From: an uncultured virus (IMG/VR IMGVR_UViG_3300032222_000250)
Taxonomy: Duplodnaviria; Heunggongvirae; Uroviricota; Caudoviricetes
Strand: one strand, 5' to 3'
IMG/VR virus record: IMGVR_UViG_3300032222_000250
Length of the DNA stretch: 64,000 nt
Every line of letters begins with the position of its first letter. Position 1 is the first letter of the stretch. Below, piece after piece: positions 1-32,423 of this stretch. A program made the position numbers and the translations under genes. The notes beneath the pieces are model-generated. The model was not told the origin of the DNA, searched no databases, and saw nothing but the letters and a program-made list of their open reading frames with translations.

Positions 1-320
1 ACAAGGAGGACCTGGACCAACAGGAGCACAAGGTGCGACAGGACCACAAGGAGGACCTGGACCAACAGGAGCACAAGGTGCGACAGGACCACAAGGAGGA
101 CCTGGACCAACAGGAGCACAAGGAGCTACGGGTTCACCTGGTTCTAACGGAGCACAAGGAGCTACGGGTTCACCTGGTTCTAACGGAGCACAAGGAGCTA
201 CGGGTTCACCTGGTTCTAACGGAGCACAAGGAGCTACGGGTTCACCTGGTTCTAACGGAGCACAAGGTTCTGCAGGTTCTAACGGAGCACAAGGAGCTAC
301 AGGTTCACAAGGAGCACCGG
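1..320 (+). repeat. Tandem coding repeats: a 45-bp unit (about 2.7 copies) then a 36-bp unit GGAGCACAAGGAGCTACGGGTTCACCTGGTTCTAAC (4 copies)
   Basis: Near-identical direct repeats are visible in the sequence and encode the collagen triplets. Confidence 0.95.
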
Positions 321-826
321 GTCCATTAGCGTGTCCATTACAAATTTGTGATGGTTCAGCTTCGGCACCAGCATATTCATTCTCAGGAGATACAAATACA
401 GGTGTATACAGGCAAGGTAATAGTACTACAGGAGCATCATTAGGTTTTTCAATAAATGGTAATGAAAGATTTAGGATGGATGATGGAAACTTCTTAGCAT
501 ACGCTGACATTATCGCATTCTCATCAACATTATCTGATAGAAGATTAAAAAATAATGTAACTTCTTTATCAAATAGTTTGGAAATAATTAACAAACTAAG
601 ACCTGTGTCTTACACTTGGGATTTAAAATTAAACAGACAAGGAACTGACTTTGGTTTGATTGCTCAAGAAGTTGAAGAAGTTTTACCAAATATAGTTAAA
701 GAAACTGAAACATTATTTGATGATAAGATATATAAAGCTGTGAGTTATGAAAAATTGATACCATTATTGGTTAACTCAATACAAGAACTTACTGAAGAAA
801 TAAAGAAATTGAAAGGTGGACAATAA
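2..826 (+). CDS. Tail fibre C-terminal part (5'-truncated): collagen-like G-X-Y repeats followed by a peptidase S74 intramolecular chaperone
   Basis: The frame from base 2 reads QGGPGPTGAQGATGP...(GAQGATGSPGSN)x4...GSASAPAYSFSGDTNTG and runs without a stop into the 476..826 ORF. That ORF has S74 motifs SDRRLK, LRPVSYTW, GLIAQEVEEVLP and VSYEKLIPLLVNSIQEL. Confidence 0.9.
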   Translation, partial: QGGPGPTGAQGATGPQGGPGPTGAQGATGPQGGPGPTGAQGATGSPGSNGAQGATGSPGSNGAQGATGSPGSNGAQGATGSPGSNGAQGSAGSNGAQGATGSQGAPGPLACPLQICDGSASAPAYSFSGDTNTGVYRQGNSTTGASLGFSINGNERFRMDDGNFLAYADIIAFSSTLSDRRLKNNVTSLSNSLEIINKLRPVSYTWDLKLNRQGTDFGLIAQEVEEVLPNIVKETETLFDDKIYKAVSYEKLIPLLVNSIQELTEEIKKLKGGQ

Positions 827-840
827 ACCACCTTTCAATT
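807..840. terminator. 13-bp inverted repeat spanning the tail-fibre stop codon, a probable terminator or RNA hairpin
   Basis: AATTGAAAGGTGG-acaataaa-CCACCTTTCAATT. Confidence 0.6.
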
Positions 841-855
841 ATTATATTTAACATT

Positions 856-1083
856 ATGGGATTTAGTGAAGAACATTTAGAATTAATGAGAACAACACGA
901 AACTATCTTAAAGAATCTGGTGTTATGATAGATAAGTATAGTTTTGTAAATTACGGTGATGATGATTTATGGGTTTGTACCTATATTGATTGGGATTTTT
1001 ATTTTACAACTGAGATTAAAAATAAATTTATTGAGTTGGGTATTAAATACGACCCAAGACCAAGAGTTACAAATAATAATTAA
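856..1083 (+). CDS. Hypothetical protein
   Basis: 75-aa ORF packed between neighbouring genes. Confidence 0.6.
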   Translation: MGFSEEHLELMRTTRNYLKESGVMIDKYSFVNYGDDDLWVCTYIDWDFYFTTEIKNKFIELGIKYDPRPRVTNNN

Positions 1084-1084
1084 T

Positions 1085-1690
1085 ATGACAACACCAGCTT
1101 CAGGTCAAATATCTTTAGGTGATTTAAAATCCGAATTAAATAGTGCTGGATTTTCAGCACCATCAGCGGACATTGCGTTATCTGAAATGAATTCATATAA
1201 TATGTTGAATGGTTTTTATGATACATATGGGTATAGTTTTATTGGGGGAGGTGCTCAAGTACCACTATCAAATTTTTATGACTTACAAGCGGAGTGTGCA
1301 TCTAGTTTTGTAGTTGCGGGTACAATTACAGAGTATAATTTTTTTATGTTAATGATAACAAACGATTCTTCTGCGGGAGGAATCAACGGGGCTAATTATC
1401 CTGGAAATAATTATTTTAATCCAAATAGTGGAACTATTTCACCAGGAACAACAAGTGGGGTTGACATTGTGCATTTTGACCAATTAACTGCCACAGTGTC
1501 CTGTAATAATACTAAATTTCCACCAACACCACCGTTTGCGAATTTAACGGTACAATACGATAATGGTGGTGGTTTAACTAATTTTCCTGGTTCACCATTT
1601 AATGGGCCAGCAATAAATGTAAATTCTGGAACGGTAAGTAATGCTGCAAATAGTTCTGGAACACCTACATTTACCGTACAATGTGGTTAA
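1085..1690 (+). CDS. Tail-fibre-associated protein or adhesin-like virion protein
   Basis: The likely start MTTPASGQISLGDLKSELN is an N-terminus typical of genes following S74 tail fibres. The body is G/S/T/N-rich. The 956 start in the ORF track overlaps the upstream gene. Confidence 0.6.
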   Translation: MTTPASGQISLGDLKSELNSAGFSAPSADIALSEMNSYNMLNGFYDTYGYSFIGGGAQVPLSNFYDLQAECASSFVVAGTITEYNFFMLMITNDSSAGGINGANYPGNNYFNPNSGTISPGTTSGVDIVHFDQLTATVSCNNTKFPPTPPFANLTVQYDNGGGLTNFPGSPFNGPAINVNSGTVSNAANSSGTPTFTVQCG

Positions 1691-1729
1691 TGTTATTTAT
1701 TTTTTAACGTATTTTCATATTTTTAGTAT

Positions 1730-2317
1730 ATGGACTTAAAACCAATATTCCCCGCCAAAGAAGGTATAAATCAAACAAACTATTATTGGTTTGAAAATGG
1801 GTTTACAACACAAGAAGTTGATACCATTGTTAATGGTTCTTTAGAATACGAGTTTCAAAAGGCTGTTATTATTGATGAAAATAATACTGATAAATTTAGA
1901 AAAAGTAATATTAAGTGGTTACCATTTGATTCTAAATGGGAGTGGGTTATTGATAAGATAATGTCACAAGTTACTGAAGCTAACAGTGCGATTTGGAACT
2001 TTGAATTAAAATCAATTATTGATAATATTCAATATACAGAATATGAGGGAAATGGTGGTCATTATGATTGGCATTTGGATATTGGACCAGGAAGTATATC
2101 ACACAGAAAAATATCAATAGTTATTCAATTATCGGACCCAAATGATTACGTTGGTGGTGATTTACAAATAATGACGGGTTCTGAATATACAACAATTCCA
2201 AGAGGAAAAGGTAATGTAGTGGTGTTCCCATCATTTTTATTACATAGAGTTGTTCCATTAACAAGTGGTAATAGAAAAAGTTTAGTTTTATGGGTTGGAG
2301 GAGACCATTACAAATAA
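1730..2317 (+). CDS. 2OG-Fe(II) oxygenase (PKHD/prolyl-hydroxylase-like)
   Basis: HxD (YDWHLD), distal His (LLHRV) and 2OG-binding Arg (NRKSLV). Confidence 0.9.
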   Translation: MDLKPIFPAKEGINQTNYYWFENGFTTQEVDTIVNGSLEYEFQKAVIIDENNTDKFRKSNIKWLPFDSKWEWVIDKIMSQVTEANSAIWNFELKSIIDNIQYTEYEGNGGHYDWHLDIGPGSISHRKISIVIQLSDPNDYVGGDLQIMTGSEYTTIPRGKGNVVVFPSFLLHRVVPLTSGNRKSLVLWVGGDHYK

Positions 2318-2903
2318 TATGATTATATCGTCAATTATAGTGGATGATTTTTATAATGACCCACACGAAACAAGAGAATTTGCATTACAACAAGAATTTA
2401 ATGTAGTTGGTAATTATCCAGGATTTAGGAGTAAACCATTTTATAATCAAAGTGTTGTTAATTTAATACAGGACATTGTGTATTTTTCTGGTGGTAAAAT
2501 AACAAATTGGGCTACAGATGAATATAATGGTGCTTTTCAATACGCAACTCAAAGAGACCGAAGTTGGATGCATTCTGACCAAACAACAACATGGGCAGGT
2601 ATTTGTTTTTTAACACCTAACGCACCAATTACCGCAGGTACTGGTTTGTTTAGACATAAAGAAACAGGAATATATACGGCACCTTTAAAAAATGATGGTA
2701 CATACGATTATGAAACGTTAGACAAATTATATTTGGACTCCCAAGACATGACTAAATGGGAAATGACAGATATGTTAGGTAACAAATTTAATCGTTTAAT
2801 ATTATATAGAGCCGATTATTTTCATACATCGTTAGATTATTTTGGTAGAAATTTACAAGACGGTAGATTATTTCAAACGTTCTTTTTTGATACCGAAAGA
2901 TAA
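2295..2903 (+). CDS. 2OG-Fe(II) oxygenase (DUF6445-like)
   Basis: IIVDDFY, YPGFRS, WMHSD (HxD), FNRLILY, YFHTS and GRLFQTFF. The true start may be 2319. Confidence 0.8.
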   Translation: MEETITNNMIISSIIVDDFYNDPHETREFALQQEFNVVGNYPGFRSKPFYNQSVVNLIQDIVYFSGGKITNWATDEYNGAFQYATQRDRSWMHSDQTTTWAGICFLTPNAPITAGTGLFRHKETGIYTAPLKNDGTYDYETLDKLYLDSQDMTKWEMTDMLGNKFNRLILYRADYFHTSLDYFGRNLQDGRLFQTFFFDTER

Positions 2904-2908
2904 GATTT

Positions 2909-4156
2909 ATGAAAACTAAAAAACCAAGTGCCATTGTTTACAATTGGGACCGTAAAGGTGTATTTGAGATACAATCAGAAATTTATTGTGAAGAAAATTT
3001 AATTGATTATGTAACCATTTATTCGTTGGATAATATAGATAATTTAATTAAAGACTATTCAAAGTACCAACCTGATTTAATCATCTCTTTTGGAGATAGA
3101 ATTGTTTTAGATTCTAAAATATTAAATTTACGATACATTAATTATGATAAAATTATAAATGATGTTGAATTAGCCAATGAGATTGTAAAACGAGGAACGT
3201 TTATTAATTGTGAAAACCCAAAACCACGATTTTCAATTTTTACACCAACATATAATATTGGTGAAAGAATTCTAAGAACATATGATAGTATTTTAAATCA
3301 ATCATTTACTGATTGGGAATGGATTGTTGTTGATGATTCAACTGACGACATTACGTGGAACATATTACTTGAGTTAAAAGAAAAAGATTATAGAGTAAAA
3401 CCTTATAGAATATTTCCATTAAGTGGTGGAAATATTGGATTAGCAAAAAACAGAGCGGCATCATTATGTGACGGAGATTGGTTGGTTGAATTGGACCATG
3501 ATGACGTATTGACAAAACAATGTTTAGAAGTATCAAACGATGCTATTTTACAATATCCTGATGCAGGTTTTCTATATAGTGATGTTTGTGAAATGTTTGA
3601 AGATGGTGGGATGAAAACTTACGACCACGATTTTTCAGGTAATTGGTACGGAAGAAATGATAACTTTTTTGATTTTGGTTATGCTGGTCATTCATGGACA
3701 AATGTTGATGGTAAAGACCTAATTGCTCATTGGTATCCTGATATAAATCCTTTAACTATAAGATTTAATATTAGTATGCCTGACCACGTAAGAATGTGGG
3801 AAAGAAAAAAATATTTGGAAATAGGTGGTCATAATAAAAATTTACCTATTGCCGATGATTTAGAAATAATTATACGAACATTTTTAAACACAAAAATAAT
3901 TCACGTAAAACAGGTTTTATATATACAATATAATAATAAAAATACTACTGTTGATAATAACGCTATTGATATTAATCGTAGAGCTAGATTAATTAGGGAT
4001 TATTACGATAAAAAAATTCACGAAAAAATAATTAAAATGGGAAAACATGATTGGAATTGGGTTGAGAATGAAAATTGCTCACAAAAGTTCCAAAACCATA
4101 TTTTCATTAGAAAGTTTTATAGTGAAGAAGAAATCTTAAACTACATTTATAAATAA
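2909..4156 (+). CDS. Glycosyltransferase family 2
   Basis: FSIFTPTYN, WIVVDDS, NRAASL and ELDHDD (DxD). Confidence 0.88.
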   Translation: MKTKKPSAIVYNWDRKGVFEIQSEIYCEENLIDYVTIYSLDNIDNLIKDYSKYQPDLIISFGDRIVLDSKILNLRYINYDKIINDVELANEIVKRGTFINCENPKPRFSIFTPTYNIGERILRTYDSILNQSFTDWEWIVVDDSTDDITWNILLELKEKDYRVKPYRIFPLSGGNIGLAKNRAASLCDGDWLVELDHDDVLTKQCLEVSNDAILQYPDAGFLYSDVCEMFEDGGMKTYDHDFSGNWYGRNDNFFDFGYAGHSWTNVDGKDLIAHWYPDINPLTIRFNISMPDHVRMWERKKYLEIGGHNKNLPIADDLEIIIRTFLNTKIIHVKQVLYIQYNNKNTTVDNNAIDINRRARLIRDYYDKKIHEKIIKMGKHDWNWVENENCSQKFQNHIFIRKFYSEEEILNYIYK

Positions 4157-4162
4157 AAAACC

Positions 4163-6049
4163 ATGATAAATTTTACTGTAACCGAAAAAGAAATTAACGA
4201 ATATAATCAAGCACAACCGTTTCCACATATTGTCATTGATAATTTTTTACCACCGTCAATATTGAATGGTGTAATTGATGATTTTAGAAATCATAATGAC
4301 TGGGGATGGGATAATAGTCAGTATTCACAACAACACCAAGTTAAAAAGTTTTTTTCACCTTGGAATGAAAATGGTAATAATATATTACCAATTAATACAA
4401 AATTAATATTAAACTATCTAAACTCTCCTGAAACAATAAGTATGTTGGAGAAGTTAACAGGTATTGATGGCTTAATTGCTGACCCAACATTATTAGGTGG
4501 TGGAATGCATAAAATTGATTCTGGCGGGAAATTATCAATTCACGCCGATTCAAGAAAACATGCGGTTACGGGAAATTATAGACGAATAAACTTATTGGTT
4601 TATTTGAATAAAAATTGGAACAGTGAATGGGGTGGTTCTTTACAACTTTGGAATAATGACATGACAACTATGGTTCAAGATATCCAACCATTTTTTAATA
4701 GAGTTGTTATATTCAACACTGGTGGAGATACATATCATGGACACCCACACGTTTTAAATACTCCCGAAGGTGTATCAAGAATTTCTTTGGCGTTGTATTA
4801 TTATACAAAAGAAAACCCTGATACTGATGAAAATAACGTCACATCAGCGGTTTGGAAAGATGTACCAAGTGAAACAAAACAAATTACACCAACAAAAGTT
4901 ATTAAGGACGGACCAACCATGTGTTTTGCAACCATGTGTAAGAACGAGGAGCATTGTATTCAAAATACTTTAGAGTCAGTCTATAAACATATTGATTATT
5001 GGGTTGTGTGTGATACAGGGTCAACTGACAGAACTTGTGAAATAGTTAAAAACTTTTTTGAAGAAAAAGGAATACCCGGAGAACTACATGTAGATAAATG
5101 GGTTGGTTTTGACCATAATAAAAGTTTAATGATGGAAAGAGCTAAAGATAAAACAGATTATGTTTTACATTTAGATGCTGATGATTTGTTAATAAATGGT
5201 TTAGATTTTGGAAAAAATGATATTGGTGACGACGCTTACTTTATGAATGTGACTAGAGGGACTTTAAAATGGAAGGCGTTAATTATATTCAATAACAGAC
5301 TCACTTGGAGATTTTGTGGTGTTGCTCACACGACAATAAAATGTAAGGAAAAAGAAAGTTTTACCACTAAAGATATTTCAAATCGGAATTCATATGTCTC
5401 AGGTGAAGGTATTGGTTCAAGAGCGTTTGACCCCAAAAAATTTCTATACGATGCCGAAAAATTAAAGAAACAATTTTTTGATACGTTATTGTCTGACCCT
5501 GATAATTTAAACAGTAGGTCGGCTTTTTACACTGGTCAAAGTTATCAAGATTACGGTATGTTAGAAGAAGCCATAAAATGGTATAGACTTTATACTAAAT
5601 TAGATGTTACGTGGTTTGAAGAAATTTTTGAGTGTAACATGAGAATTGCGTATTGTATGATGAAACTTAATTACAAATTAAGTGATATTGAATCTCAAAT
5701 GTCTTTAGCGATTAATATAGAACCTGATAGAGCTGAACCGTATTATTTTATGGGTAAACATTGTAATGAAATTGGTGAGTACGAAAAGGCATATAACTAT
5801 TTGAGGGCTGCCAAATCAAGAGATTATAAAAGTGTTAAAGAAAAATACAGATTGTTTATTCAAGAAACGATGTATGGTATTTACAACAATGATGAATTAT
5901 CGGTTGCTTGTTTTTGGAGTGATAGGTTTGATGAAGGATATAAATACCTTTTAGAAATATTAAATGATGAAAGATTTAGTAGTTCAAAAGATAGATTACT
6001 AACTAATCAAAAACATTTCCAAGATAGAATGGGTGTACTCCATAATTAA
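4163..6049 (+). CDS. Fusion of 2OG-Fe(II) oxygenase, GT2-like glycosyltransferase and TPR region
   Basis: N-terminus PFPHIVIDNFL...SIHAD...TYHGH...SRIS; middle MCKNEEHCI...CDTGSTD...HLDADD; C-terminus with TPR-like helices (FYTGQSY, EPDRAEPYY). Confidence 0.88.
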   Translation: MINFTVTEKEINEYNQAQPFPHIVIDNFLPPSILNGVIDDFRNHNDWGWDNSQYSQQHQVKKFFSPWNENGNNILPINTKLILNYLNSPETISMLEKLTGIDGLIADPTLLGGGMHKIDSGGKLSIHADSRKHAVTGNYRRINLLVYLNKNWNSEWGGSLQLWNNDMTTMVQDIQPFFNRVVIFNTGGDTYHGHPHVLNTPEGVSRISLALYYYTKENPDTDENNVTSAVWKDVPSETKQITPTKVIKDGPTMCFATMCKNEEHCIQNTLESVYKHIDYWVVCDTGSTDRTCEIVKNFFEEKGIPGELHVDKWVGFDHNKSLMMERAKDKTDYVLHLDADDLLINGLDFGKNDIGDDAYFMNVTRGTLKWKALIIFNNRLTWRFCGVAHTTIKCKEKESFTTKDISNRNSYVSGEGIGSRAFDPKKFLYDAEKLKKQFFDTLLSDPDNLNSRSAFYTGQSYQDYGMLEEAIKWYRLYTKLDVTWFEEIFECNMRIAYCMMKLNYKLSDIESQMSLAINIEPDRAEPYYFMGKHCNEIGEYEKAYNYLRAAKSRDYKSVKEKYRLFIQETMYGIYNNDELSVACFWSDRFDEGYKYLLEILNDERFSSSKDRLLTNQKHFQDRMGVLHN

Positions 6050-6663
6050 AGAAAAATATTTTTGTTTGATAGATAGTATAATACACCATTATCAAATTCT
6101 AATTTTTCTTCTTGTGTAAAATACTCAGATGAAAGGTAGTTGTAGTAACAAAGATATTTGTTAATACAAAATGAGTTTTGACCTAATTTTTCAGCAAACG
6201 TACCATCACCAAAATAGTTTTCGTCAAATCTTAAAGTTGGTTTAAATCCGTATCTCCACATATAACTGCCTTGGTCCATGGCTCTAAACACCATGTGTTC
6301 TGTAGGTCTTAATCTCATAGAATTATCGTTCCATAACTGACCCCAACTCAAAATGTTATGGTTGTTATTACAGAAAGGTTTTACGTTTTCATACCAATTT
6401 GGATGGATAATGTTGTCATCATCCAAAACATAAACCCAATCAGAGTCAGTTAGTTTCAAGTTATCTAAAGCGTAATTGATATGAGGTTTACCATAACCAC
6501 CCGTTATATTTTTAGGTCTAAAAATGATATCACCATAAGGTAGTATTTCATCATTATGGTTTGAATCATATATAACAACCCAAATACATTCATCAGGTAT
6601 TGTTTTGGAAATTTGTGATAGATGTTGTATTCTACTACAGGGGGTGATAATATAGATACTCAT
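6046..6663 (-). CDS. GT-A fold glycosyltransferase
   Basis: IYIITPCSR and WVYVLDDDNIIHP (DxD). Confidence 0.75.
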   Translation of the reverse strand: MSIYIITPCSRIQHLSQISKTIPDECIWVVIYDSNHNDEILPYGDIIFRPKNITGGYGKPHINYALDNLKLTDSDWVYVLDDDNIIHPNWYENVKPFCNNNHNILSWGQLWNDNSMRLRPTEHMVFRAMDQGSYMWRYGFKPTLRFDENYFGDGTFAEKLGQNSFCINKYLCYYNYLSSEYFTQEEKLEFDNGVLYYLSNKNIFL

Positions 6664-6732: not shown

Positions 6733-7269
6733 ATGGATTTATTGACGGCACAAGATGCTATGAACTTATTGAAGATTGAACAATTAGATTATTCTGTTAT
6801 GAATACAACTGATGTTTCTCACATTAAAGAGATTTATTTGAAGTCAAAAACATATAGAGGTGGAACCGCATGTGAGGTTGGTAGTTTGGGTGGACATGGA
6901 ACATTTTCATTATGTTTGGCAGGGCTTAATGTAACATCATATGATAATAACGGACACAAAGGGTTTAAAGATAAACGAGAAACTTTGTGTAAAGATTTTA
7001 ATGTTAATTGGATTGTTCAAGAAGGACTTTACGCATTAAATAATGAAACAAAATATGATGTTGTATTCCACGACTCATATCACTTTGAAGAGGTAATTCC
7101 TGAATTGGTTGCATTTTGGTTCTATAAAGTTAAAGATAAAGGAATGTTAATTGTTCATGATGTTGAAACTTTTAGTCATGAAAGATTTATGTTCTTAATT
7201 GGTAATCCAAGATTTGAAAGAACTAAAGATATTCACGGTAGAGAACTTGGAACTTATTATAAAAATTAA
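6733..7269 (+). CDS. Class I SAM-dependent methyltransferase (Methyltransf_24-like)
   Basis: CEVGSLGG, YDVVFHDSYH and GMLIVHD. Confidence 0.75.
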   Translation: MDLLTAQDAMNLLKIEQLDYSVMNTTDVSHIKEIYLKSKTYRGGTACEVGSLGGHGTFSLCLAGLNVTSYDNNGHKGFKDKRETLCKDFNVNWIVQEGLYALNNETKYDVVFHDSYHFEEVIPELVAFWFYKVKDKGMLIVHDVETFSHERFMFLIGNPRFERTKDIHGRELGTYYKN

Positions 7270-8513
7270 TGGACCAAACAAATTGTGACATATTAATTAT
7301 TGGCGCTGGTATAACAGGACTTTCGTTAGCATCCTTTTTGGGTACGGATGATTATCTTATTGTTGAAAAAGATTCTGAGGTTGGGGGATATTGCAAAACA
7401 ACAATTAGAAATGGTTTTGTATGGGATTATTCTGGTCACTTCTTTCACTTTAACAATCAAGAAATTAAAGATTATGTATTAGAGAATATTGAGTGTGACG
7501 TGGTTACGGTTAATAAGAAAAGTCACATATATTATAAAGACCGATACATAGATTTTCCATTTCAAAACAACATAGACCAATTACCAACAGATGAGTTTGT
7601 TGAGTGTTTATATGACCTGAGGAACACTGGAAATGGTGAGGTTAATACATTCACAGACTTTGTTAAAAACACGTTAGGAGAGTCAATTTGTAATAAGTTC
7701 ATCATACCTTATAATCAAAAGTTATATGCTTGTGATTTGAATAATTTGGATTATGATGCAATGGGAAGGTTCTTTCCAAAACCCACAAACTTTGATGACT
7801 TATTAACTCAACTCAAAAACAAAAACAAGTCTGAATCTTATAATGACACATTCATATACCCAACAGGTGGTAGTGTTGAATTTGTTAAGTCATTACTCAA
7901 ACGAGTAAACCAAGATAATATTTTATTGGATACTGAAATCATCAGTATTGACCTTGAAAACAAAATCGCTCAAACAACTAACGAATACATAAAGTTTAAT
8001 AAATTGGTGAATACAATGCCGTTTGATACCTTTATGAAACTCACAGGTGAGAAGGTTGATAACTTATCATCAAACAAAGTAGTTGTGTTTAATTTGGGTT
8101 TTGATAAACCCACTGACATCAGTTCAAATTGGGTGTATTATCCTAATGATGAAATATTCTATAGAGTTGGATTCTATAACAATATCTTCGGTACAGATAA
8201 AATGAGTTTGTACGTTGAGATTGGTTTGGATAAAACTGACAGAGTTATTGAGGAGGATTTGTTGAATAAGATATTAGATGATTTATCAAGGATGGGGGTT
8301 ATAAATGACCATAATTTAGTAGACCACCAAATGATTGTTATGAATCCTGCCTATGTTCATATTACCAAAGAATCAAAAGAAGTTTATAATAGTTGGGAAA
8401 AAAAAAATAACCCTAATGGGTTATTTTCTATTGGTAGATATGGTTCTTGGACTTATTGTTCTATTGAGGATAGCATCCTACAATCAAAAGAACTATCAGT
8501 AAGATTGGTATGA
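7269..8513 (+). CDS. FAD-dependent oxidoreductase, UDP-galactopyranose-mutase-like
   Basis: GAGITG dinucleotide motif, WDYSGHFFH, FIIPYNQK, FIYPTGG, WVYYP..FYR and GRYGSWTY. Confidence 0.75.
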   Translation: MDQTNCDILIIGAGITGLSLASFLGTDDYLIVEKDSEVGGYCKTTIRNGFVWDYSGHFFHFNNQEIKDYVLENIECDVVTVNKKSHIYYKDRYIDFPFQNNIDQLPTDEFVECLYDLRNTGNGEVNTFTDFVKNTLGESICNKFIIPYNQKLYACDLNNLDYDAMGRFFPKPTNFDDLLTQLKNKNKSESYNDTFIYPTGGSVEFVKSLLKRVNQDNILLDTEIISIDLENKIAQTTNEYIKFNKLVNTMPFDTFMKLTGEKVDNLSSNKVVVFNLGFDKPTDISSNWVYYPNDEIFYRVGFYNNIFGTDKMSLYVEIGLDKTDRVIEEDLLNKILDDLSRMGVINDHNLVDHQMIVMNPAYVHITKESKEVYNSWEKKNNPNGLFSIGRYGSWTYCSIEDSILQSKELSVRLV

Positions 8514-24229: not shown

Positions 24230-25210
24230 ATGACTTGGAAAGATAAACTTATATTTGTTTCAGCACAACCAGATGTACCGTATTTTCATTGGCAGTGTGA
24301 AGTATATTTAAATAATTTTATTGAGTTGGGTATTCCAAAAGAGAATATTCATGTTTTATTTGCAATGGTTAATAAAACAACCGAGTTATCTGATGGTGCA
24401 AAATATTTAAAAAAATATACAGAAAATATTCATGGGTATATAGACAACCGTGAAAGAAAACATTACATACCAAGTATTAAACCTTATTTATTATATGAAT
24501 GGATTAAAGAAGACCCAAAAAGAGGAGAGTTATTTTTTCTACATGACTCTGACATTGTATTTAATTACCTTCCTGATTTCAGCAATCTTATAAACAATGA
24601 TTATATCTATATGTCCAATACTCGTGGATATATAGATTTTAATTACATTATGGATTGTGATGGTAGGTATAAAGAAAAACATCCCCAATTAGATTCAGGA
24701 CAACTATTGAGAGAAATGTGTGACATTGTTGGTGTTGAACCAAGTGTTGTTAAAAAGAATGATGTTAATTCAGGTGGTGCTCAATATGTGTTTAAAAAAC
24801 AAGATTGGCAAATGTGGTATAAAATTTATAAAGAATCCACAGGTCTTTATGACAAACTAATGAGATTCCAACGAAAGTATCCAATATCACCAGGTGAGAT
24901 ACAATTTTGGACTGCCGAAATGTGGTCAGTATTATGGAATCAATGGTGGTGGAATAAAGAAACAAGGATTACCAAAGAACTTGATTTTTGTTGGGCGACT
25001 GATAAGATTGAAACTTGTAATACCAACCCAATATTACATATGGCTGGTGTAACTGATAACCTTAAAAATACACTATTTTTTAAAGGTGATTATATTAATA
25101 ATAACCCAATTGAACTTTTGAAATATAATGTTGAGTATTTTAATTATGTTGATAAACAATCAGCAACTTACAAATACATAAATGAAATGAAAAAAATAAT
25201 TCAAAAATAG
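24230..25210 (+). CDS. Putative protein O-glycosyltransferase resembling plant SGT1/HPAT (GT96/GT95-like)
   Basis: Motif order YFHWQ, YIPSIKPYLLYEWI, LHDSDIVF (DxD), GGAQY, WTAEMW and ILHMAG parallels the SGT1/HPAT motifs as I recall them. Confidence 0.6.
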   Translation: MTWKDKLIFVSAQPDVPYFHWQCEVYLNNFIELGIPKENIHVLFAMVNKTTELSDGAKYLKKYTENIHGYIDNRERKHYIPSIKPYLLYEWIKEDPKRGELFFLHDSDIVFNYLPDFSNLINNDYIYMSNTRGYIDFNYIMDCDGRYKEKHPQLDSGQLLREMCDIVGVEPSVVKKNDVNSGGAQYVFKKQDWQMWYKIYKESTGLYDKLMRFQRKYPISPGEIQFWTAEMWSVLWNQWWWNKETRITKELDFCWATDKIETCNTNPILHMAGVTDNLKNTLFFKGDYINNNPIELLKYNVEYFNYVDKQSATYKYINEMKKIIQK

Positions 25211-25246: not shown

Positions 25247-27637
25247 ATGGCAAATTATTCAATAATACCTTGTTCAGGAGGACCGTCAGTTGTTGCTGAT
25301 TTTGGTGCATTTACACCAACAACCGGAAAGGTATATTATTTAACATTCTCCTTTGGTATTACTGATGGGTGTTATACTATTGTATCAATTACTGGAAGTG
25401 CGTTTATTGGCACGGTTACGACAATGTCGTCTCAATATGATACTTGTAGTGAATGTGAGTTAGCGACAACACCAACGCCTACACCTACTAATACAGAAAC
25501 ACCAACGCCTACACCTACTAATACAGAAACACCAACGCCTACACCTACGTTAACACCTACACCAACTAGTTGTGTTTGTAGATTTTTGGATGTTGTAATA
25601 ACACAAGGTGATATAGATGACGCGACAGGAAATACAAACACAGCATTAAATGGTAAAGTATATCTTTTTTACACTGATTGTGAAAGTAATCCTACTAGTG
25701 AGGAATACTCAGTTGCTAGTGCGTACACGCATTCAGTTTGTGCGTTAGCTAGTCAAATAGGTGTATTAACAGATACGTATTATTTTAAAAATAATGTATC
25801 AACTAATGGTACGTCAACATGGACTGATAGTAATGATTGTTGTTTTTTGGGTACACCAACACCAACACCAACAAATACAGAAACACCGACAGTAACACCA
25901 ACTAATACTGAGACTCCAACGGTAACTCCAACAAATACAGAAACTCCGTCAGTATCCTCAACTTCAACGACAACACCAACTAATACTCAAACGCCAACAG
26001 TAACGCCAACTAATACTCAAACTCCTACAGGAACTCCGTCAGTATCTCCAACTTCAACACCAACAGTAACGCCAACAAATACTCAAACGCCAACAAATAC
26101 TCAAACGCCAACAGTAACTCCAACTAATACTCAAACGACAACAGTAACGCCAACTAATACTCAAACTCCTACAGGAACTCCGTCAGTATCTCCAACTTCA
26201 ACACCAACAGTAACGCCAACTAATACTCAAACGCCAACAAATACTCAAACGCCAACAGTAACTCCAACTAATACTCAAACGCCAACAGTAACACCATCTA
26301 TTACACCTACAGATTATGCGTTTAATATCTATACGTTTAAGGATTGTTGTAATGAAACAAATATTTTTAGATTTAATACAATATCATCAACTTTAATTGT
26401 TGGACAAACATTTTATATAACAAGTACTGGGTTTACTGGTTGTGCTGAAGTAATACCATACGAACCAATAGGTGAAAATTATTCTGGTGTTGGAGTTGTC
26501 TTTACTGAACAATCTTCTTGTGATGATGGGTTTTGTCCAACATGTCCTACACCAACGCCAACTCCATCAGGTCCTGTAGTTGATTGTACTTGTTTAGAGT
26601 ATCTATTGTATAATAGTAATTCTATTGATGTATATGTTGACCACATTGATTGTTATGGTCAATTTAGAGAATTTTTAGTTGTTGCAGATACAACAGTATC
26701 GTTATGTGCATGTGAAAATTCTGTTATTGCACCTGAGGGTGTGTATATAACCTTAATTGGTGAATGTCCTGCACCATCTTCAACCGTCCAACCTACACCT
26801 ACACAAACACCAACACCATCATTAACACCATCAGCAGGTTGGAATTTATGTCCAATTGATGAGTATTGTTTATTAACATATTTCCCAACAACAGAATTAT
26901 ATGATGGTACTTATTATTCTGCCGGTACACAAAATAATAGAGTATACTATTCAGGTGATACTGGATTTATATACTACACGGGAACTTATTGGTGTCTAAG
27001 TGCAACTTTAGGTGGTAGTTGTATCTTACATGGTAAAATACCAAGTTCATCTATATGTCCTGATTTATGTGATGAAGTGTTTAGTTCAGGAACTTGTGTT
27101 ACAACAACATCAACAACAAACCCTTGTAATGTGTTTGATTTTGATGCGTATTTTTATTGTGATGTATCAACGACAACTACTACAACAACGATAACTCCTA
27201 CACCAACACCAACGCCAACACCAACGGTAACTCTTACACCAACAACCAACCCTTGTTTATTGGTTGGTGCAAATATTACTTTTACAGCATATACAACCAC
27301 AACTACAACTGTCTTTAGCCCAACACCAACACCAAGTCCAAATTATGGTACTCCGGTTAGTGGTGATGTGACTTATCAGTTGGTTGACACAATATTTGTA
27401 TGTCCTGGTCAAACATATCAGTTTCAAGAGTGTAATACAAACAATATGTATTATTTGGAACCATCAAATGTGTTTGTTGATGTTGATTTAATTACCAACT
27501 ATTCATACAATATGACCATAAACGGAACTCAATCATGTTACACCTATATTGGTGTGAGTTCAACATCTCCAAATTCAACAGCGTCTGTTGTTGTTGATTG
27601 GTTTGTAGATTGCTCAACATGTCAAGATAGTTTATAA
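25247..27637 (+). CDS. Cys-rich, Pro/Thr-repeat (mucin-like) putative virion protein
   Basis: Long [10 protein letters not shown] tracts separate Cys-rich modules; TATTTATA motif upstream. Confidence 0.75.
25853..26310 (+). repeat. Pro/Thr coding repeat tract containing a ~144-bp tandem duplication
   Basis: ACTCCTACAGGAACTCCGTCAGTATCTCCAACTTCAACACC occurs at ~26021 and ~26165, within many CCAACAGTAAC.CCAAC.AATACTCAA units. Confidence 0.9.
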
Positions 27638-27978
27638 TGGCAATTGATATAACAATAGCATCAATAACAGGACAATCACCATATGATATTTATATCTGTG
27701 ATTCAGTTGTGGCAAACTGTGTTTATATTTCAACCATACAAAGTGGGAATACACCATACATCTTTACAGTTCCAGCCCCATTAGATAATCAAACTTCTTT
27801 GTGTGTTAAAATTGTTGATAGTAATGAGTGTGTATTTAGTTACTGTTTTGTTGGTTATATAACCCAAACACCAACTCAAACACCAACGGTTACTCCAACT
27901 AAGACTACGACACCAACGGTTACTCCAACTAATACTACAACACCAACAACAACACCAACAATAACACCAACAGCATAA
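27637..27978 (+). CDS. Small Ig-like virion protein with a Pro/Thr tail
   Basis: ITGQSPYDIYICD..CVKIVDSNEC followed by TPT repeats. Confidence 0.65.
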   Translation: MAIDITIASITGQSPYDIYICDSVVANCVYISTIQSGNTPYIFTVPAPLDNQTSLCVKIVDSNECVFSYCFVGYITQTPTQTPTVTPTKTTTPTVTPTNTTTPTTTPTITPTA

Positions 27979-27987: not shown

Positions 27988-30213
27988 ATGGCAATTCAAA
28001 CTAACATATTTACCAATTGTAATAATGTAAATCAAACACAGATATTACAGTATAATGACATATTCTTCAATCCTGGAGATATTGCTTATTATGATGGATT
28101 ATGTTGGATTGATACCGAAGTAAATAGTGATTTAATACCCGTTGCCGATGTAACGTTTAGTGGGTATGGTAGTTGTGATGATTGTATTTCTACCAATTTA
28201 CTTGGACTTCAAATTCAAAATTGTACTTCAAGTGAACTTGCTGTAATAACTGTACCAACAAATATTGTACCTACACTTAATACTGTAATTTTATATGATG
28301 GTAGTTGTTGGGAATATGTTGCACTTAGACCAACTAATGACAATGTCTATACATCATTAACTACATATGAAGATTGTACAGTTTGTTTAGATTTAAACAC
28401 AGGAACTACTCAATATTCTGCGGTTACATTTACAAATTGTTGTGACTCAACAGATGTATTAACATTTAATATAATACCATCAAATTTTGTATATCCTTTT
28501 GGTAGTACGGTTGTTTATAATAATAAGTGTTATTCGTTAACTAATACAACAACCGCTTCAACAGTAACAGCAACTTTTGAATATCCTGAATATCAAAATT
28601 GTACTTTTTGTCAATCGGAAATTCCGTGTCCGACACCAACACCAACGCCGAGCGTCACCGCAACACAGACGTTAACACCAACTAATACACCAAGTATTAC
28701 GCCAACAAAAACAATAACACCAACACCAACAAAAACACCGGGATTAACTCCAACACCAAGTTATACTACAACTACAACAACAAGAGCCACAGAAAAAAAT
28801 GAATGTAATGTTATTACATTATTTCCATTAGGTGTTACTTGTAATGTTGTAAATCCAACAATCGTAAATGGATTTGGTACTATGAGTTTATTTATAACTG
28901 GTGGTACACCACCATATAATATAGTTTGGAGTAATGGTATTATTGATTCAACTGTTGTTAGTGGTTTAACACCAGGAGTTTATTCTGCAATTGTAACTGA
29001 TTATTCTTGGCCTAATAGTGGACCTGATTTTACAGCATCTACAACATGTACAATAATTGGAGTAACACCAACACCTACACCATCATTAACACCAACGTTA
29101 ACTCCATCGCCAACACCTACACCATATACTGGTTTATGTGTGACATTTACATTGACTAATAATCAACAATATCAGTATCAGTTTAATTATTATTCAACAA
29201 TAAATAATAAACCTGCTTGGACTGCAGCGACTTATTCATCACCAATAACAACTGGTTCTGGTGGAATATTGGTATTAAGTAATTCTGTATTATCAGGTTG
29301 GACAATTCAAGGTTTGTCAACAGACGCTTACCCAAGTTCAAATACGACTTCAATACCACCGTTAAATAATTGGATTATGAATGGAAGTAGTCAAATTAGT
29401 TCTTTAAGTGTGGTTACAGGTACTTGTCCTACTTATTTACCACTTAACATGTCTGTGGTTACATCATCGGCGACTTGTACAGCAACGGCTGATGGTTCAA
29501 TAGCGATTCAACCATATGGTGGTTCGGGTTCATATATTTACTCAATTAATAGTGGAACCACAACAGGAACAACGGCTTATTTCTATGATTTAAATCCTGG
29601 TATATATACGGTGTATGTTAAAGATACTGTGACAGGATTGTATATTACCCAAAATATTACGGTGGCAAATTTAAATCAAAATGTAACAACAACATTACAA
29701 TTAACACAAACAACAAATCAAACTCAAATTGACAGTCCATATGTGCAATCTAAAAATCAAATATGGAGTTTAAATTGTGGTGATATTCCAAATGGAGTTA
29801 CGATTACAATGTTATTTGACATTAGTAATAATTTTGAACTTTATAAACCTGGTAGTGGAAATAACAATCTAACCAACATTGTTATTAATAAAAATAATGT
29901 ACCAATAACAATAACTTCAGGTGGTACAACAAACACATCATCACCAAGACCTTTCTGTTCACCAAATAACATTGAAACGACTTTAAAAGATTTGTCGGCA
30001 ACAGTTTCTGTAACAAATAGTGATACTTTAACGGTTAATGTTTACAACTATGGTATTATAACAAGTGCTACAACATCAAGTTGTGATACAACAATAAATA
30101 GTGAAATCCAAATTAATGGTTCATTTAACTACATATCTGAGGATAATTGTAATACTATAATATCTGGTGGTTTATCAGTGGTTAGTGTTGTTGAAAAGTC
30201 ATTACAAGAATAA
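27988..30213 (+). CDS. Cys-rich, Pro/Thr-repeat virion protein with SprB-like repeats
   Basis: Three Cys modules, PT tracts, GTMSLFITGGTPPYNIVWSNG..LTPGVYSAIVTD and DGSIAIQPYGGSGSYIYSI..LNPGIYTVYVKD. Confidence 0.75.
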   Translation: MAIQTNIFTNCNNVNQTQILQYNDIFFNPGDIAYYDGLCWIDTEVNSDLIPVADVTFSGYGSCDDCISTNLLGLQIQNCTSSELAVITVPTNIVPTLNTVILYDGSCWEYVALRPTNDNVYTSLTTYEDCTVCLDLNTGTTQYSAVTFTNCCDSTDVLTFNIIPSNFVYPFGSTVVYNNKCYSLTNTTTASTVTATFEYPEYQNCTFCQSEIPCPTPTPTPSVTATQTLTPTNTPSITPTKTITPTPTKTPGLTPTPSYTTTTTTRATEKNECNVITLFPLGVTCNVVNPTIVNGFGTMSLFITGGTPPYNIVWSNGIIDSTVVSGLTPGVYSAIVTDYSWPNSGPDFTASTTCTIIGVTPTPTPSLTPTLTPSPTPTPYTGLCVTFTLTNNQQYQYQFNYYSTINNKPAWTAATYSSPITTGSGGILVLSNSVLSGWTIQGLSTDAYPSSNTTSIPPLNNWIMNGSSQISSLSVVTGTCPTYLPLNMSVVTSSATCTATADGSIAIQPYGGSGSYIYSINSGTTTGTTAYFYDLNPGIYTVYVKDTVTGLYITQNITVANLNQNVTTTLQLTQTTNQTQIDSPYVQSKNQIWSLNCGDIPNGVTITMLFDISNNFELYKPGSGNNNLTNIVINKNNVPITITSGGTTNTSSPRPFCSPNNIETTLKDLSATVSVTNSDTLTVNVYNYGIITSATTSSCDTTINSEIQINGSFNYISEDNCNTIISGGLSVVSVVEKSLQE

Positions 30214-30242
30214 AATAAAAATAAAAGTATTTACTAAATAAT

Positions 30243-32423
30243 ATGGGTTATATAATCAAAGATACCGCAGGGTTAATCAATACAAAGTTGACAGATACTG
30301 GTAGACAGTACTTGTCTGAAGGAAATTTTAACATAAGTTATTTCCAAATTGGTGACTCTGAGGTTTGTTATAACTGTGCCAGTGGTATCTTACCATCATC
30401 AGGTTTTGTGTTAGAACCTATGTTCAATTCTCAAAATTCAACAGGAGTTCCACAAAGTAATAAACAGTATATTAAGTATCCATATTATTTACAAGGAACG
30501 TCAGGTAGTACCTATGGTATACCAACAATGCAATCGGTGGAAACCAACTTATACAACTTTACAGATAGACTTGGATTTTTTACTGGAACTAGTGGAAGTT
30601 ATAGTGCAATAACCAATTCTGCGTATACTGTAACATCTAATTATATTGTAAATTATACAGGTTGTAGTTCGGGAAATAGTATTGATTTAATTTACGATTT
30701 TTGTTCATCATCAACAGGTACTCCTGAGATTGGTAATTTTGTTACATTTATCTTTGACAGTATTGGTGGTTGTGGTAATATTAGTAGTAGTAGTCCTATT
30801 TTAACCTATAAAATACAAGCAGTTACCGCAACTAGTGTAACGGCATTTACTATTACGGTTGACAGAGCACTTCCTGATTTTGTAAATCAACCATGTTTTG
30901 GTGATGCAAGAGCATTGATATATCCAAGCGGTATGACACCATTTTATGATGCGGTTACACCGGCAAGTTATTTTAGTGGTGTCTGTTCATCTGCTGATAC
31001 GGTAAATGTTTGGAATATGAATATTCCTTGGAGTGAATCACCTGCCGGAGTTATCCCAACAATTAATGAAGATTATACATACTATGGTTCTGTTAATTAT
31101 TTAGGAACTAAAGAATATTTGGGATATCAAACTACCTCAGGTCAGTATTTTATGGATTATAGTGGTATTACTGCAAACACAGATACCTTTTATTATAATT
31201 CATACGATGAGGAAATTCCTGTGTTTCCTGAAGAACAAAAAGCGATTGCTATTGTTCATTATACTAATCAAAATGTTAACAATTATTATGGTGAAAAATT
31301 TGCGTTTGAACCATATAATTCTCTTAATCCAACCATACCAGGATTTGCAAGAAACTTCAAAGTTGAAATGCCAACTTTAATGTGGCATAAAACAACAGGA
31401 ACTACAATAGGACAAACTTTTTATGTTGACCCAGTGGGTTACGATTTGTGTTACCCATCTTATATGGATAGTAAAAAGAATGAGGATATGAACACACCTG
31501 GTATGAGATATTATCATTTGTGGGATACGAATCCAAATACAGATGGATTCCCTAACAGAGTTGGTAAAGTATATCCTGACCAAGAAATTATTGTTTTTGA
31601 TGATGAAGAAATTATTGCGGCAATGTCTTATAAGTCAAATAGAAATTGGACATTACCAGCACCAAAGTTAGGATTAATTGTACCTAATATTTGTGAGGGT
31701 GGTTCTGATACTGAAGGTATATTATCGGCAGATACAGAATATATGTGGGTGACTTATAGATTCAATTCAACAGCGTTTACTGATTCATTACATTGTAATT
31801 ATTATTCTAAAATTCAAGGACCGTCATCGGGATGTTCTTTAACCTCACAAAATGTTACCGTAAGATTTGGAAATGAATTTCCATTCTTAACACAAAGTTG
31901 TTCATCTGGTTTTACCGCAAACAAATTAAGTATCTTATGTCAAAAGACGATTGGCGATACAAGACCATTACCACAGAATTGGACTGAAATTGATGTTACA
32001 TCAGATTTGTCGGGTACTTTAGTTGGTGGATATATTACCGCATCAGGACTTACAGGAACAACATTTGTTATTAGTTTAAATGATTTTTCAGGTGGTACTA
32101 ACTATGATTTGAATGACTATGTTGACATACCAATGAATGGTGAAACTGACAAGTTGAATTTTGGTGATGAGTATTCTTTTTATGGTGATATTAGTACTGA
32201 TATCCAAGGTACGATTTATGAAATGAAATACGCAGTTAACTTGGCGGAAGAGCAATTTACTAACTCGTCAAACCCTACGTATTCAATATTAACAAGTAAT
32301 CAAAAATATATTACTGAAATTGGTCTTTATAATTCTAATAATGACCTTATGATTTTATCTAAGTTGCAGTACCCCGTGTTAAGACAGGGTATTCAGCAAT
32401 TCTTGATAAAATTTGATTTCTAA
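30243..32423 (+). CDS. Virion structural protein, tail-collar/baseplate-like
   Basis: The N-terminal KLTDTGR..G..ISYFQIGD and C-terminal YITEIGLYN..LMILSKL.YP resemble the two halves of tail-collar fibre (DUF3751-like) domains. Confidence 0.6.
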   Translation: MGYIIKDTAGLINTKLTDTGRQYLSEGNFNISYFQIGDSEVCYNCASGILPSSGFVLEPMFNSQNSTGVPQSNKQYIKYPYYLQGTSGSTYGIPTMQSVETNLYNFTDRLGFFTGTSGSYSAITNSAYTVTSNYIVNYTGCSSGNSIDLIYDFCSSSTGTPEIGNFVTFIFDSIGGCGNISSSSPILTYKIQAVTATSVTAFTITVDRALPDFVNQPCFGDARALIYPSGMTPFYDAVTPASYFSGVCSSADTVNVWNMNIPWSESPAGVIPTINEDYTYYGSVNYLGTKEYLGYQTTSGQYFMDYSGITANTDTFYYNSYDEEIPVFPEEQKAIAIVHYTNQNVNNYYGEKFAFEPYNSLNPTIPGFARNFKVEMPTLMWHKTTGTTIGQTFYVDPVGYDLCYPSYMDSKKNEDMNTPGMRYYHLWDTNPNTDGFPNRVGKVYPDQEIIVFDDEEIIAAMSYKSNRNWTLPAPKLGLIVPNICEGGSDTEGILSADTEYMWVTYRFNSTAFTDSLHCNYYSKIQGPSSGCSLTSQNVTVRFGNEFPFLTQSCSSGFTANKLSILCQKTIGDTRPLPQNWTEIDVTSDLSGTLVGGYITASGLTGTTFVISLNDFSGGTNYDLNDYVDIPMNGETDKLNFGDEYSFYGDISTDIQGTIYEMKYAVNLAEEQFTNSSNPTYSILTSNQKYITEIGLYNSNNDLMILSKLQYPVLRQGIQQFLIKFDF

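Follow-up and report, generated by a model that had tools for sequence, protein, structure and literature searches.

A candidate phage-encoded system for modifying the phage's own collagen-like virion fibre

In a 64,000-nucleotide stretch of DNA from an uncultured tailed phage (IMG/VR record IMGVR_UViG_3300032222_000250, here called the window), a gene for a collagen-like virion fibre is followed by ~24 kb encoding about 24 soluble modification enzymes and then by three proteins with proline/threonine (Pro/Thr) tracts. We think it probable that the phage uses this block, or island, to modify its own collagen-like fibre post-translationally, in the host cytoplasm before assembly. The observations are gene content, family membership, conserved residues, gene order and covariation, and from these we infer every chemical step as well as the acceptor. 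Three kinds of evidence support self-modification of the fibre: the protein-directed families to which enzymes of the block belong, a gene order that is conserved downstream of collagen genes, and covariation between the type of collagen triplet and the enzymes present. An earlier sequence-only reading of this DNA had described a block of modification enzymes of ~23.5 kb between plausible substrates, and this arrangement was recovered. It had further proposed a self-built glycan coat on the phage fibres; the part concerning the collagen fibre is supported, and the part concerning extensin- or mucin-like proteins found no independent support.

The window proteins were scanned with Pfam, NCBIfam, PHROG and PDB searches, with the Pfam scan covering 30 proteins. 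The DNA is low in GC (~30%) and belongs to a large tailed phage. Downstream of the island, PHROG matches include a RuvC-like resolvase, a primase, an exonuclease, an endonuclease VII, a sigma factor and SbcCD-like (gp46/47-type) nuclease subunits. The closest matches were Microcystis phage Mel-JY01 and metagenomic phages of 480-735 kb, at 25-43% protein identity, and no close relative was found among cultured phages. Near relatives in IMG/VR are 190-317 kb in size; one of them (G001) has 294,914 bp and a CheckV completeness of 98%.

The fibre gene (2..826, + strand) starts beyond the window start and is present as a C-terminal fragment of 274 amino acids (aa). It matches Collagen (PF01391, 55.5 bits) and Peptidase_S74 (PF13884, 63.4 bits), both above cut-off, together with many PHROG tail-fibre families. 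Thirty-six uninterrupted Gly-X-Y triplets occupy nt 5-328, and the Peptidase_S74 intramolecular chaperone lies at about nt 533-700. The triplets include GAQ (8), GAT (7), GSN (5), GSP (4), GGP (3) and GPT (3). Pro takes 22% of the Y and 17% of the X positions, and Thr 28% of the Y positions; Pro stands in Y in GGP and GSP and in X in GPT and GPQ, and Thr stands in Y in GPT and GAT. This census agrees with the earlier description of a left-hand collagen tail fibre with Pro and Thr in the Y position (GGP, GSP, GPT, GAT), and adds that Pro is also found in X. The fibre segments are nearly free of Lys. In G001 the fibre gene runs across both contig ends (L078 2-2248 and L003/L020, where L numbers denote loci of the comparative set), which indicates that the assembly is circular or permuted and was broken inside the repeats. 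The N-terminal 749 residues of this fibre contain 37% Ser and 0.9% Pro and are built from GSS, GTS and GES triplets. Many related contigs likewise stop within collagen repeats, and such ends hide these genes from routine annotation.

Two P4H-type (prolyl 4-hydroxylase-type) oxygenase domains are encoded in the block. The first, P4H_a (1730..2317, +), is a 2-oxoglutarate (2OG)-Fe(II) oxygenase (PF13640, 54.6 bits, cut-off 27) in which H115, D117, H172 and R182, the H-x-D...H...R iron/2OG motif, are invariant in 11 orthologues; its match to PF03171 (E 0.0067) remained under the cut-off. The second forms part of a 628-aa fusion of a P4H-type oxygenase, a GT2 glycosyltransferase (GT) and TPR repeats (4163..6049, +; PF13640 65 bits with a cut-off of 27, PF00535 29.5 bits). 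PDB matches of the fusion were GmaR, a HIF prolyl hydroxylase, ThuS/SunS and TPR proteins, and NCBIfam matches were YhhC, SunS and FlmC, each under its cut-off. The GT2 domain is nearest to GmaR, ThuS and SunS, and the oxygenase is nearest to HIF prolyl hydroxylases and the peptide oxygenase YhhC, all at scores below the family cut-offs. Hydroxylase and GT2 form a single polypeptide in the window and in L020-L025 and two adjacent open reading frames (ORFs) in L065; the split in L065 versus the fusion in the window is a fusion/fission link of the predicted hydroxylation with the predicted glycosylation. Between these two genes lies that of a DUF6445 protein (2295..2903, +; PF20043, 48.5 bits), in which H93, D95, H177 and R191 are invariant in an HxD...H...R pattern. 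By this motif it is a candidate cupin/2OG oxygenase; hhalign gave a probability of 0.3% for its alignment with the P4H_a profile, and a PDB profile search returned no relative. Of the three 2OG-Fe(II) oxygenases proposed before, two therefore stand as PF13640 domains and the DUF6445 protein is a candidate by motif only, with neither profile nor PDB kinship. The Pfam scan found no PLOD-type lysyl hydroxylase domain and none of the GT domains of such enzymes.

Two further enzymes are related to TibC, a protein O-heptosyltransferase. The larger (9763..12054, -) is a GT4 domain fused to a full-length TibC-type enzyme. Its C-terminal 350 residues align with TibC residues 28-384, including the N-terminal barrel region (PDB 4rap, E 1.9e-41), and it scores above the equivalog cut-off of TIGR04414, which comprises the autotransporter O-heptosyltransferases (227.4 vs 200 bits). 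The family of the N-terminal beta-barrel, TibC_1st (PF21129), reached 26.5 bits with a cut-off of 27. The shorter enzyme (8870..9766, -; 4rap E 1.3e-32) consists of the catalytic domain and iron finger without the beta-barrel and reaches 192.7 bits with TIGR04414, slightly below the cut-off of 200. In TibC, as described in the available part of the structural study, Asp-110 is the catalytic base, Thr-226, Lys-230 and Trp-305 bind the donor, and four Cys form the iron finger (PMC4358343). These residues were checked in an alignment of viral TibC-like domains with 78 rows (76 distinct sequences, both window domains included). Asp-110, Lys-230, Trp-305 and the four iron-finger Cys (339, 342, 358, 370) were invariant in 78/78 rows, and the Thr-226 position holds Thr or Ser. 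Judged by these features, the larger enzyme is a member of the BAHT family of autotransporter heptosyltransferases, Arg-286 excepted. The TibC fold and mechanism thus appear to be retained in the viral domains, and use of ADP-heptose is doubtful. No bacterial relatives of the GT4-TibC protein were found in a genome contig scan limited to close relatives sharing query peptide patterns, and literature searches returned no description of a phage TibC-type enzyme. The TibC/Aah equivalog, the P4H-type oxygenases and a GT2 domain nearest to GmaR, SunS and ThuS support, at the level of predicted families, an action of these enzymes on protein.

To compare gene order, viral contigs were scanned with GT4-TibC, P4H-GT2-TPR and P4H_a as queries, which yielded 18, 56 and 77 loci; Mel-JY01 and two megaphage regions were added. 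Dereplication at 95% nucleotide identity turned 153 loci and the window into 100 clusters, and 38 clusters contained a collagen-like ORF, for which 15 or more triplets in total, 10 or more of them in one run, were required. Many of the GT2-TPR contigs, some with DUF6445 and collagen ORFs, bear the label GVMAG (giant-virus metagenome-assembled genome) in IMG/VR, given here as deposited (L045, L049-L051, L054, L060, L064, L067, L070-L072, L074). Many contigs share, with variations, the order collagen ORF, P4H_a, DUF6445, GT2, GT2-TPR (with or without the fused P4H), UDP-galactopyranose mutase (UGM)-like gene and GT4-TibC. The arrangement is directional: among the 55 clusters with P4H_a, a collagen ORF lies upstream in 24 and downstream in 0.

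Triplet composition covaries with the enzymes. Pro was present in at least 9% of triplets in 23/24 collagen clusters with P4H_a versus 1/14 without (raw Fisher p 3.5e-8), and ORFs of the GSS/GTS type were present in 14/24 collagen clusters with a TibC-like gene versus 1/14 without (p 0.002). Loci that have DUF6445 and GT2-TPR and lack P4H_a (L066, L070 and L073; in L052 GT2-TPR only) carry GAQ/GAT fibres with 0-6% Pro triplets. The closest contrast is provided by the window and L082, which have the P4H cassette and 39-43% Pro triplets and nest among five cassette-less loci (L004, L005, L015, L014, L009). In these five the Pro fraction is 0.00-0.01, no cassette is present at the site, and the TibC pair directly adjoins the Pro-free fibre. 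An S74 end is found on the Pro-bearing fibres beside P4H_a (window, L039, L083) and is missing from the Pro-free fibres of L004, L005, L015 and L070. Collagen-like GTS/GSS ORFs beside a TibC-like gene also occur in distant lineages, namely Mel-JY01, megaphage LR756501 and a group with 42% identity (L016-L018). In Mel-JY01 (L001, PP395634.1), an unannotated collagen-like ORF of 1016 aa, with 77 GTS and 57 GSS triplets, lies at 2-3052 (+), where the record annotates two reverse-strand hypothetical proteins. It is followed by a 'structural protein' and a 1227-aa GT4-TibC-FkbM fusion, and a second, short Gly-X-Y ORF lies at 9152-9986 (+).

The other proposed substrates were the three right-hand proteins with long Thr/Pro tracts. 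All three were recovered as Cys-rich proteins (25247..27637, 27637..27978 and 27988..30213, all +), in which tracts of 303, 40 and 109 residues, respectively, run between Cys-rich modules. The third has SprB repeats and 44 homologues. Distant matches of these repeats occur in proteins with sorting domains (PF18962) of the type IX secretion system (T9SS), and the SprB/T9SS matches offer a hint, from sequence, of a Bacteroidota host. The tract proteins are syntenic in L004, L014 and L015, with their non-repeat parts conserved, and neither a signal peptide nor a transmembrane (TM) segment was found in any of the three. Further Pro/Thr-tract proteins (674 and 657 aa) lie directly upstream of the fibre gene in G001 and G003, among large same-strand ORFs. 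The tract proteins are probably additional fibre or adhesin proteins of the fibre module and candidates for a virion location; their modification is possible but unsupported. Across 157 loci, Pro/Thr-tract ORFs were found in 6, all from the window's own lineage, they covary with no enzyme, and they remain in relatives without the P4H cassette at the syntenic locus. Co-occurrence with the island, which had been expected for both kinds of structural gene, recurred for the collagen genes, directionally and in distant lineages, and did not extend to the tract ORFs.

A resemblance to the making of plant extensins and other hydroxyproline-rich glycoproteins (by P4H, HPAT and SGT1) had also been suggested. 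The likeness lies in the logic of Pro hydroxylation followed by O-glycosylation of hydroxyproline (Hyp) and Ser in a repetitive structural protein. The differences are that no HPAT or SGT1 homologue was detected in the window, that the tracts are of the TPT/NTQ type and not Ser-Pro(n), and that they do not covary with P4H. Since no such homologue was found and the tract ORFs are confined to one lineage and persist independently of the P4H cassette, a plant-extensin-like pathway has no independent support, and the analogy remains a guess.

Several observations weigh against self-modification of the collagen fibre. P4H_a is closest, both by sequence and by solved relatives, to PKHD-type hydroxylases, the substrate of which is unestablished, and not to collagen P4Hs. 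In 31 of the 55 clusters with P4H_a, the 10-kb flank is free of collagen ORFs, and most of these are lone P4H_a+DUF6445 pairs. In the complete 317-kb genome G003, such a pair lies at 148 kb (L157 ~8818-10339) and a lone P4H at 28 kb (L156 ~8042-8710), both far from the collagen gene, and the fibre is Pro-free, with GTS, GTD, GSN and GSS triplets. This indicates that P4H-type enzymes in these phages also have other targets. Two loci are exceptions to the covariation: L050 has Pro-bearing triplets and no P4H_a in its 12-kb contig, and L113 has P4H_a beside a Pro-poor collagen. The loci are moreover related, so the raw Fisher values overstate the case. Three changes suffice to explain the P4H label on a 24-row tree of TibC domains, which gives 3 independent pairs, all concordant (sign test p 0.25); a GT2-TPR tree (15 rows) adds one or two further independent pairs, and phylogenetically independent contrasts total only 3-5. 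Finally, the position of TibC Arg-286 is Val in both window domains, and Arg is found in 14/78 viral rows. In the available description of TibC, this Arg contacts adenine N1, explains ADP specificity and is required for activity (PMC4358343). Its replacement by Val suggests that the donor of the window domains is probably other than ADP-heptose; the nucleotidyltransferase fusion of the island may be the supplier.

Some of these points bear on the alternative that the targets are proteins other than collagen, with sugars placed on Pro/Thr-tract, capsid or tail proteins and with the P4Hs acting on non-collagen proteins, e.g. translation factors. A Pseudomonas P4H (PDB 4iw3) is said to act on EF-Tu, and mycobacteriophages reportedly place sugars on capsid and tail-tube proteins. 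The many P4H_a+DUF6445 pairs distant from any collagen ORF, the PKHD-type likeness of P4H_a and the presence of Pro/Thr-tract genes on both sides of the island in this lineage all speak for such targets. We nevertheless regard this alternative as unlikely, given that the tract ORFs are restricted to 6/157 loci of one lineage without covarying with any enzyme, and that the association with collagen is directional and repeated in distant lineages.

Remodelling of the host surface (lipopolysaccharide (LPS) core, O-antigen or capsule), for instance to block superinfection, is a second alternative, in which the proximity of the fibre gene would reflect the usual plastic 'host recognition' region. 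Also to be counted against fibre modification is that the block contains families known from polysaccharide loci (WbbJ-like, WcaA/TuaG-like, EcbF/BcbF, PseC/LegC-like, FkbM and UGM), and GT9 is otherwise the family of LPS heptosyltransferases. Host-surface modification is, in addition, the published reading for the GT clusters of pelagimyophages and cyanomyophages. Like the island, the host-recognition clusters of these phages are plastic regions of large aquatic myophage genomes in which fibre genes (some containing collagen repeats) are mixed with 2OG oxygenases and numerous GTs; the available text of the papers attributes these GTs to modification of host LPS or DNA (PMC7029224, PMC12801897). 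That same text reports no TibC-type enzymes, no P4H-GT fusion and no covariation of triplets and enzymes (PMC7029224, PMC12801897). In the window, the GT9-type domains fit the protein-specific TibC/Aah equivalog far better than LPS heptosyltransferases (227 bits with TIGR04414 vs 19-24 bits). None of the ~24 island enzymes has a TM segment, and the Pfam and TM scans of the block found no flippase, polymerase, ligase, priming/phosphoglycosyl transferase or membrane protein. Host-surface remodelling also leaves the hydroxylase-GT fusion and the covariation of triplets and enzymes unexplained, and we consider it rather improbable.

Hydroxylases and GTs could also act on DNA, where base hydroxylation followed by glycosylation would serve restriction evasion. 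Phage systems of dioxygenase plus GT exist, according to the available portion of a preprint (bioRxiv 10.1101/2023.12.21.572611), and a DNA methyltransferase is encoded at 53170-54009 (PHROG). The island oxygenases, however, belong to PF13640 and DUF6445, with no TET/JBP match among them at E<=0.01. The block contains no nucleotide-metabolism gene, the TibC family is protein-specific, and a paper on glycosylated 5-hydroxycytosine mentions no dioxygenase or 2OG enzyme. DNA hypermodification is accordingly very improbable as the function of the island.

For modification of the collagen-like fibre, we propose the following route. The P4H-type oxygenases (1730-2317, the N-terminus of 4163-6049 and perhaps the DUF6445 protein) would hydroxylate Pro in GPx and GxP triplets. 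The two TibC-type enzymes would O-glycosylate Ser/Thr of GSS/GTS triplets in the N-terminal part of the fibre, probably with a donor that is not ADP-heptose. The GT2, GT2-TPR and GT4 domains and a GT-A protein would add or extend sugars on Thr or Hyp, and the UGM-like enzyme may supply galactofuranose (Galf). The genes on the right-hand side would synthesise the sugars and modify them, through nucleotide activation, amination, acylation or acetylation, and O-methylation.

The remaining members of the block were assigned as follows. Between fibre and P4H_a lies an ORF without family (956..1690, +; no Pfam, NCBIfam or PHROG match), for which no homologue was found in L002-L019 and which is not conserved in relatives. 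GT2_a (2909..4156, +; PF00535, 73.6 bits) is a constant member of the cassette. A weak GT2-like protein (6046..6663, -; PF00535 21.5 bits, below the cut-off of 23.3) is 72-82% conserved in relatives, and a putative class I methyltransferase (6733..7269, +; Methyltransf_24 23.7 bits, below the cut-off of 26.3) is 87-95% conserved. The claim of a UGM-like mutase was borne out by a flavoenzyme at 7269..8513 (+), of which all 23 PDB matches (23/23) are UGMs. The top match is the eukaryotic-type 4dsg (E 1.7e-23, residues 7-396), and TIGR00031 reached 49.4 bits, with a cut-off of 303.75, over the N-terminal 160 residues only. Eukaryotic-type UGMs (Trypanosoma, Aspergillus; E ~1e-22) match the protein better than those of bacteria do (E 3e-07 at best). 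We call it UGM-like, with a putative activity. Its gene is a conserved neighbour of the GT2-TPR gene at many loci. A DUF6165 protein (8496..8882, -; PF19662, 37.3 bits) has homologues near TibC in L009, L086, L087, L107 and L113.

The right-hand part begins with two FkbM-family methyltransferases (12088..12759 and 12773..13504, both +; PF05050 and TIGR01444 above cut-off). They are followed by an ORF without any match (13508..14590, +) that is 98% conserved in L002 and L003 and 48% in L009. The next gene encodes a fusion of sugar-1-phosphate nucleotidyltransferase, HAD phosphatase and kinase-like domains (14587..16416, +; PF00483, 37.3 bits). The fusion matches TIGR01689 (EcbF/BcbF capsule phosphatase) at E 3e-23, under the cut-off, and shows a weak EcKL kinase-like match and weak PDB matches to HddC-type heptose guanylyltransferase (E 0.004); sugar activation is its probable function. 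A short DegT-like protein of 214 aa (16418..17062, +) is 85-90% conserved in relatives, and the aminotransferase profile fits its first third only. Then come a WbbJ-like hexapeptide acyltransferase (17064..17606, +), a FabH-type ketoacyl synthase III (17596..18537, +; FabH 324.7 bits vs a cut-off of 249), an ORF without family match (18542..19441, +), an FkbM methyltransferase (19438..20394, +) and a DUF6625 protein (20381..22249, +). An XAT-class hexapeptide acetyltransferase (22246..22794, +) has CatB and Vat as its best NCBIfam rows, at no more than 143.9 bits and far under their cut-offs (300-475; 350), and from its context it is more likely a sugar O-acetyltransferase than a xenobiotic acetyltransferase. 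A fourth FkbM methyltransferase (22791..23633, +) and a SET-domain protein, a candidate protein lysine methyltransferase (23630..24019, +; PF00856, 57.8 bits), complete this series. The DegT-like, WbbJ-like, DUF6625, XAT-class and last two FkbM assignments come from Pfam and NCBIfam. The placement of FabH and SET-domain genes inside a phage glycan island is a side observation. The methyl- and acyltransferases and sugar-activation enzymes named in the sequence-only reading are thus present as four FkbM proteins, the SET-domain protein, two hexapeptide acyltransferases, FabH and the nucleotidyltransferase-HAD-kinase fusion.

The GT-A-fold protein that may take part in sugar addition (24230..25210, +) belongs to phrog_4417, a family of 'unknown function' (E 2.3e-71). 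It has 1309 homologues, no Pfam family and an invariant H-D-x-D motif. Its AlphaFold2 (AF2) model is confident (pLDDT 95.5), and the Foldseek top matches are the UGGT catalytic domain and glycogenin (E ~5e-7, TM-score 0.35-0.45), so the model suggests a GT-A domain of the GT8/GT24 type. One neighbouring cluster in the Atlas, with HPAT in 10% of its members, had offered HPAT as a lead, which was not confirmed. HPAT gave no Pfam match for this protein and was absent among the 120 homologues listed; PF23452 (HPAT) matched 0/5 related records in a search whose control likewise matched nothing. Where roughly ten GT or GT-like domains had been counted, seven are supported: the GT2 domains of 2909-4156 and 4163-6049, the weak GT2 of 6046-6663, the GT4 domain, the two TibC-type domains and, by fold, 24230-25210. 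The ORFs 13508-14590 and 18542-19441 and the DUF6625 protein stayed unassigned.

The block is closed by a very conserved phage protein of 726 aa (30243..32423, +) with 3578 homologues at E<=1e-5. The best 120 of these 3578 are at least 57% identical, and the protein belongs to an abundant uncultured phage group. The protein matched no family and, by tblastn, nothing in cultured phages, and its Atlas neighbours were unnamed viral clusters only. Its AF2 model, made with 31 sequences, is poor (pLDDT 51.8), and the best VIA-align match, to a phage tail part (Z 6.7), is within the noise of the tool. The T4-type late promoter TATAAATA was uninformative, with 21 matches vs 13.6 expected and 21 reached in 4/100 shuffles.

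The closest family among known systems is BAHT, and the closest functional analogue is the collagen modification of mimivirus. With BAHT enzymes (TibC, Aah/AAH; TIGR04414; 4rap, 4rb4), the window enzymes share true sequence kinship, with Asp-110, Thr-226, Lys-230, Trp-305 and the iron-finger Cys kept and Arg-286 replaced by Val. BAHT enzymes, which form dodecamers, are soluble and cytoplasmic and hyperglycosylate Ser of a repetitive fibre-like protein, a property that is only predicted for the window enzymes. They differ from the two window copies, one of which follows a GT4 domain in a fusion and the other of which has no beta-barrel. No autotransporter is present in the window, and in place of a beta-helix passenger the virion offers a collagen-like Gly-Ser/Thr-Ser repeat as candidate acceptor.

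Another prokaryotic collagen-like filament, BclA of the Bacillus anthracis exosporium, is rich in Thr-bearing GPT triplets and O-glycosylated, and belongs to a cellular spore. The sugar carries a methyl group, and its synthesis depends on an aminotransferase and an acyltransferase. Of this toolkit, the window has counterparts in the DegT-like protein, the hexapeptide acyltransferase, FabH and FkbM; neither a BAHT enzyme nor a P4H-GT fusion is known to take part in BclA modification. Freeman et al. 2023 reportedly found that mycobacteriophage GTs glycosylate the phages' own structural proteins in the cytoplasm, the targets being capsid and tail-tube proteins. This virion glycosylation is said to proceed without a hydroxylase, a collagen-like acceptor or a BAHT-type enzyme. 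The P4H of the algal virus PBCV-1 was reportedly tested on short Pro-rich peptides, and the virus is said to have no syntenic collagen gene or GT cassette. As related in the available text of a later paper, the presumed targets of this Chlorella virus enzyme are Pro-rich repeats of the virus itself (Eriksson et al. 1999, cited in PMC9301287). Mimivirus, as far as the accessible parts of two papers describe it, has collagens, a 2OG hydroxylase and GTs, and its hydroxylase and GT are fused in the lysyl hydroxylase-glucosyltransferase L230 (PMC9546862, PMC5802723). That enzyme is of the PLOD type, makes glucosylated hydroxylysine (Glc-Hyl) and serves an amoeba virus, according to the same parts (PMC9546862, PMC5802723). 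The window, in contrast, belongs to a tailed phage and has P4H-type (PF13640) oxygenases, nearly Lys-free fibre segments and, in addition, predicted Ser/Thr O-glycosylation of the BAHT type.

A broader idea, which we put forward tentatively and hold to be doubtful as a whole, is that aquatic jumbo phages and giant-virus-binned contigs share a modular 'collagen code', in which each triplet type would have its own enzyme module and both would be swapped together by recombination. In such a code, GSS/GTS triplets would be paired with a BAHT-type O-glycosyltransferase no longer specific for ADP-heptose. GAQ/GAT triplets would go with DUF6445, GT2-TPR and the UGM-like enzyme, possibly with addition of Galf. 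GPx triplets would go with P4H, and their Hyp might be glycosylated by the fused GT2 in a manner reminiscent of Hyp O-glycosylation in plants. If the code is real, Pro-free, sugar-stabilised collagen would be a common virion material. New here are the covariation of P4H with Pro triplets, the fusion P4H-GT2-TPR together with the UGM-like enzyme that accompanies it, and the fact that Arg-286 has been lost; literature searches returned no description of this cassette.

Few 'auxiliary' genes are as abundant in aquatic viruses as those for prolyl 4-hydroxylases, the use of which is described as cryptic in the available text of one paper (PMC9301287). For some of these genes, their fixed place behind collagen-like fibre genes and their covariation with Pro triplets offer a concrete answer that can be tested. 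GT islands in the fibre regions of marine and freshwater phages may likewise be virion glycosylation systems instead of systems for host LPS or DNA modification. The BAHT family would then reach from bacterial adhesins to phage particles, and the long Pro-free Gly-Ser/Thr-Ser 'collagens' may require sugars for their stability. If self-modification of the fibre holds true, phage fibres would join the fibrils of mimivirus and the BclA filament as self-glycosylated collagen-like materials, with consequences for host recognition, resistance to proteases, the immune recognition of phages and the design of recombinant collagen.

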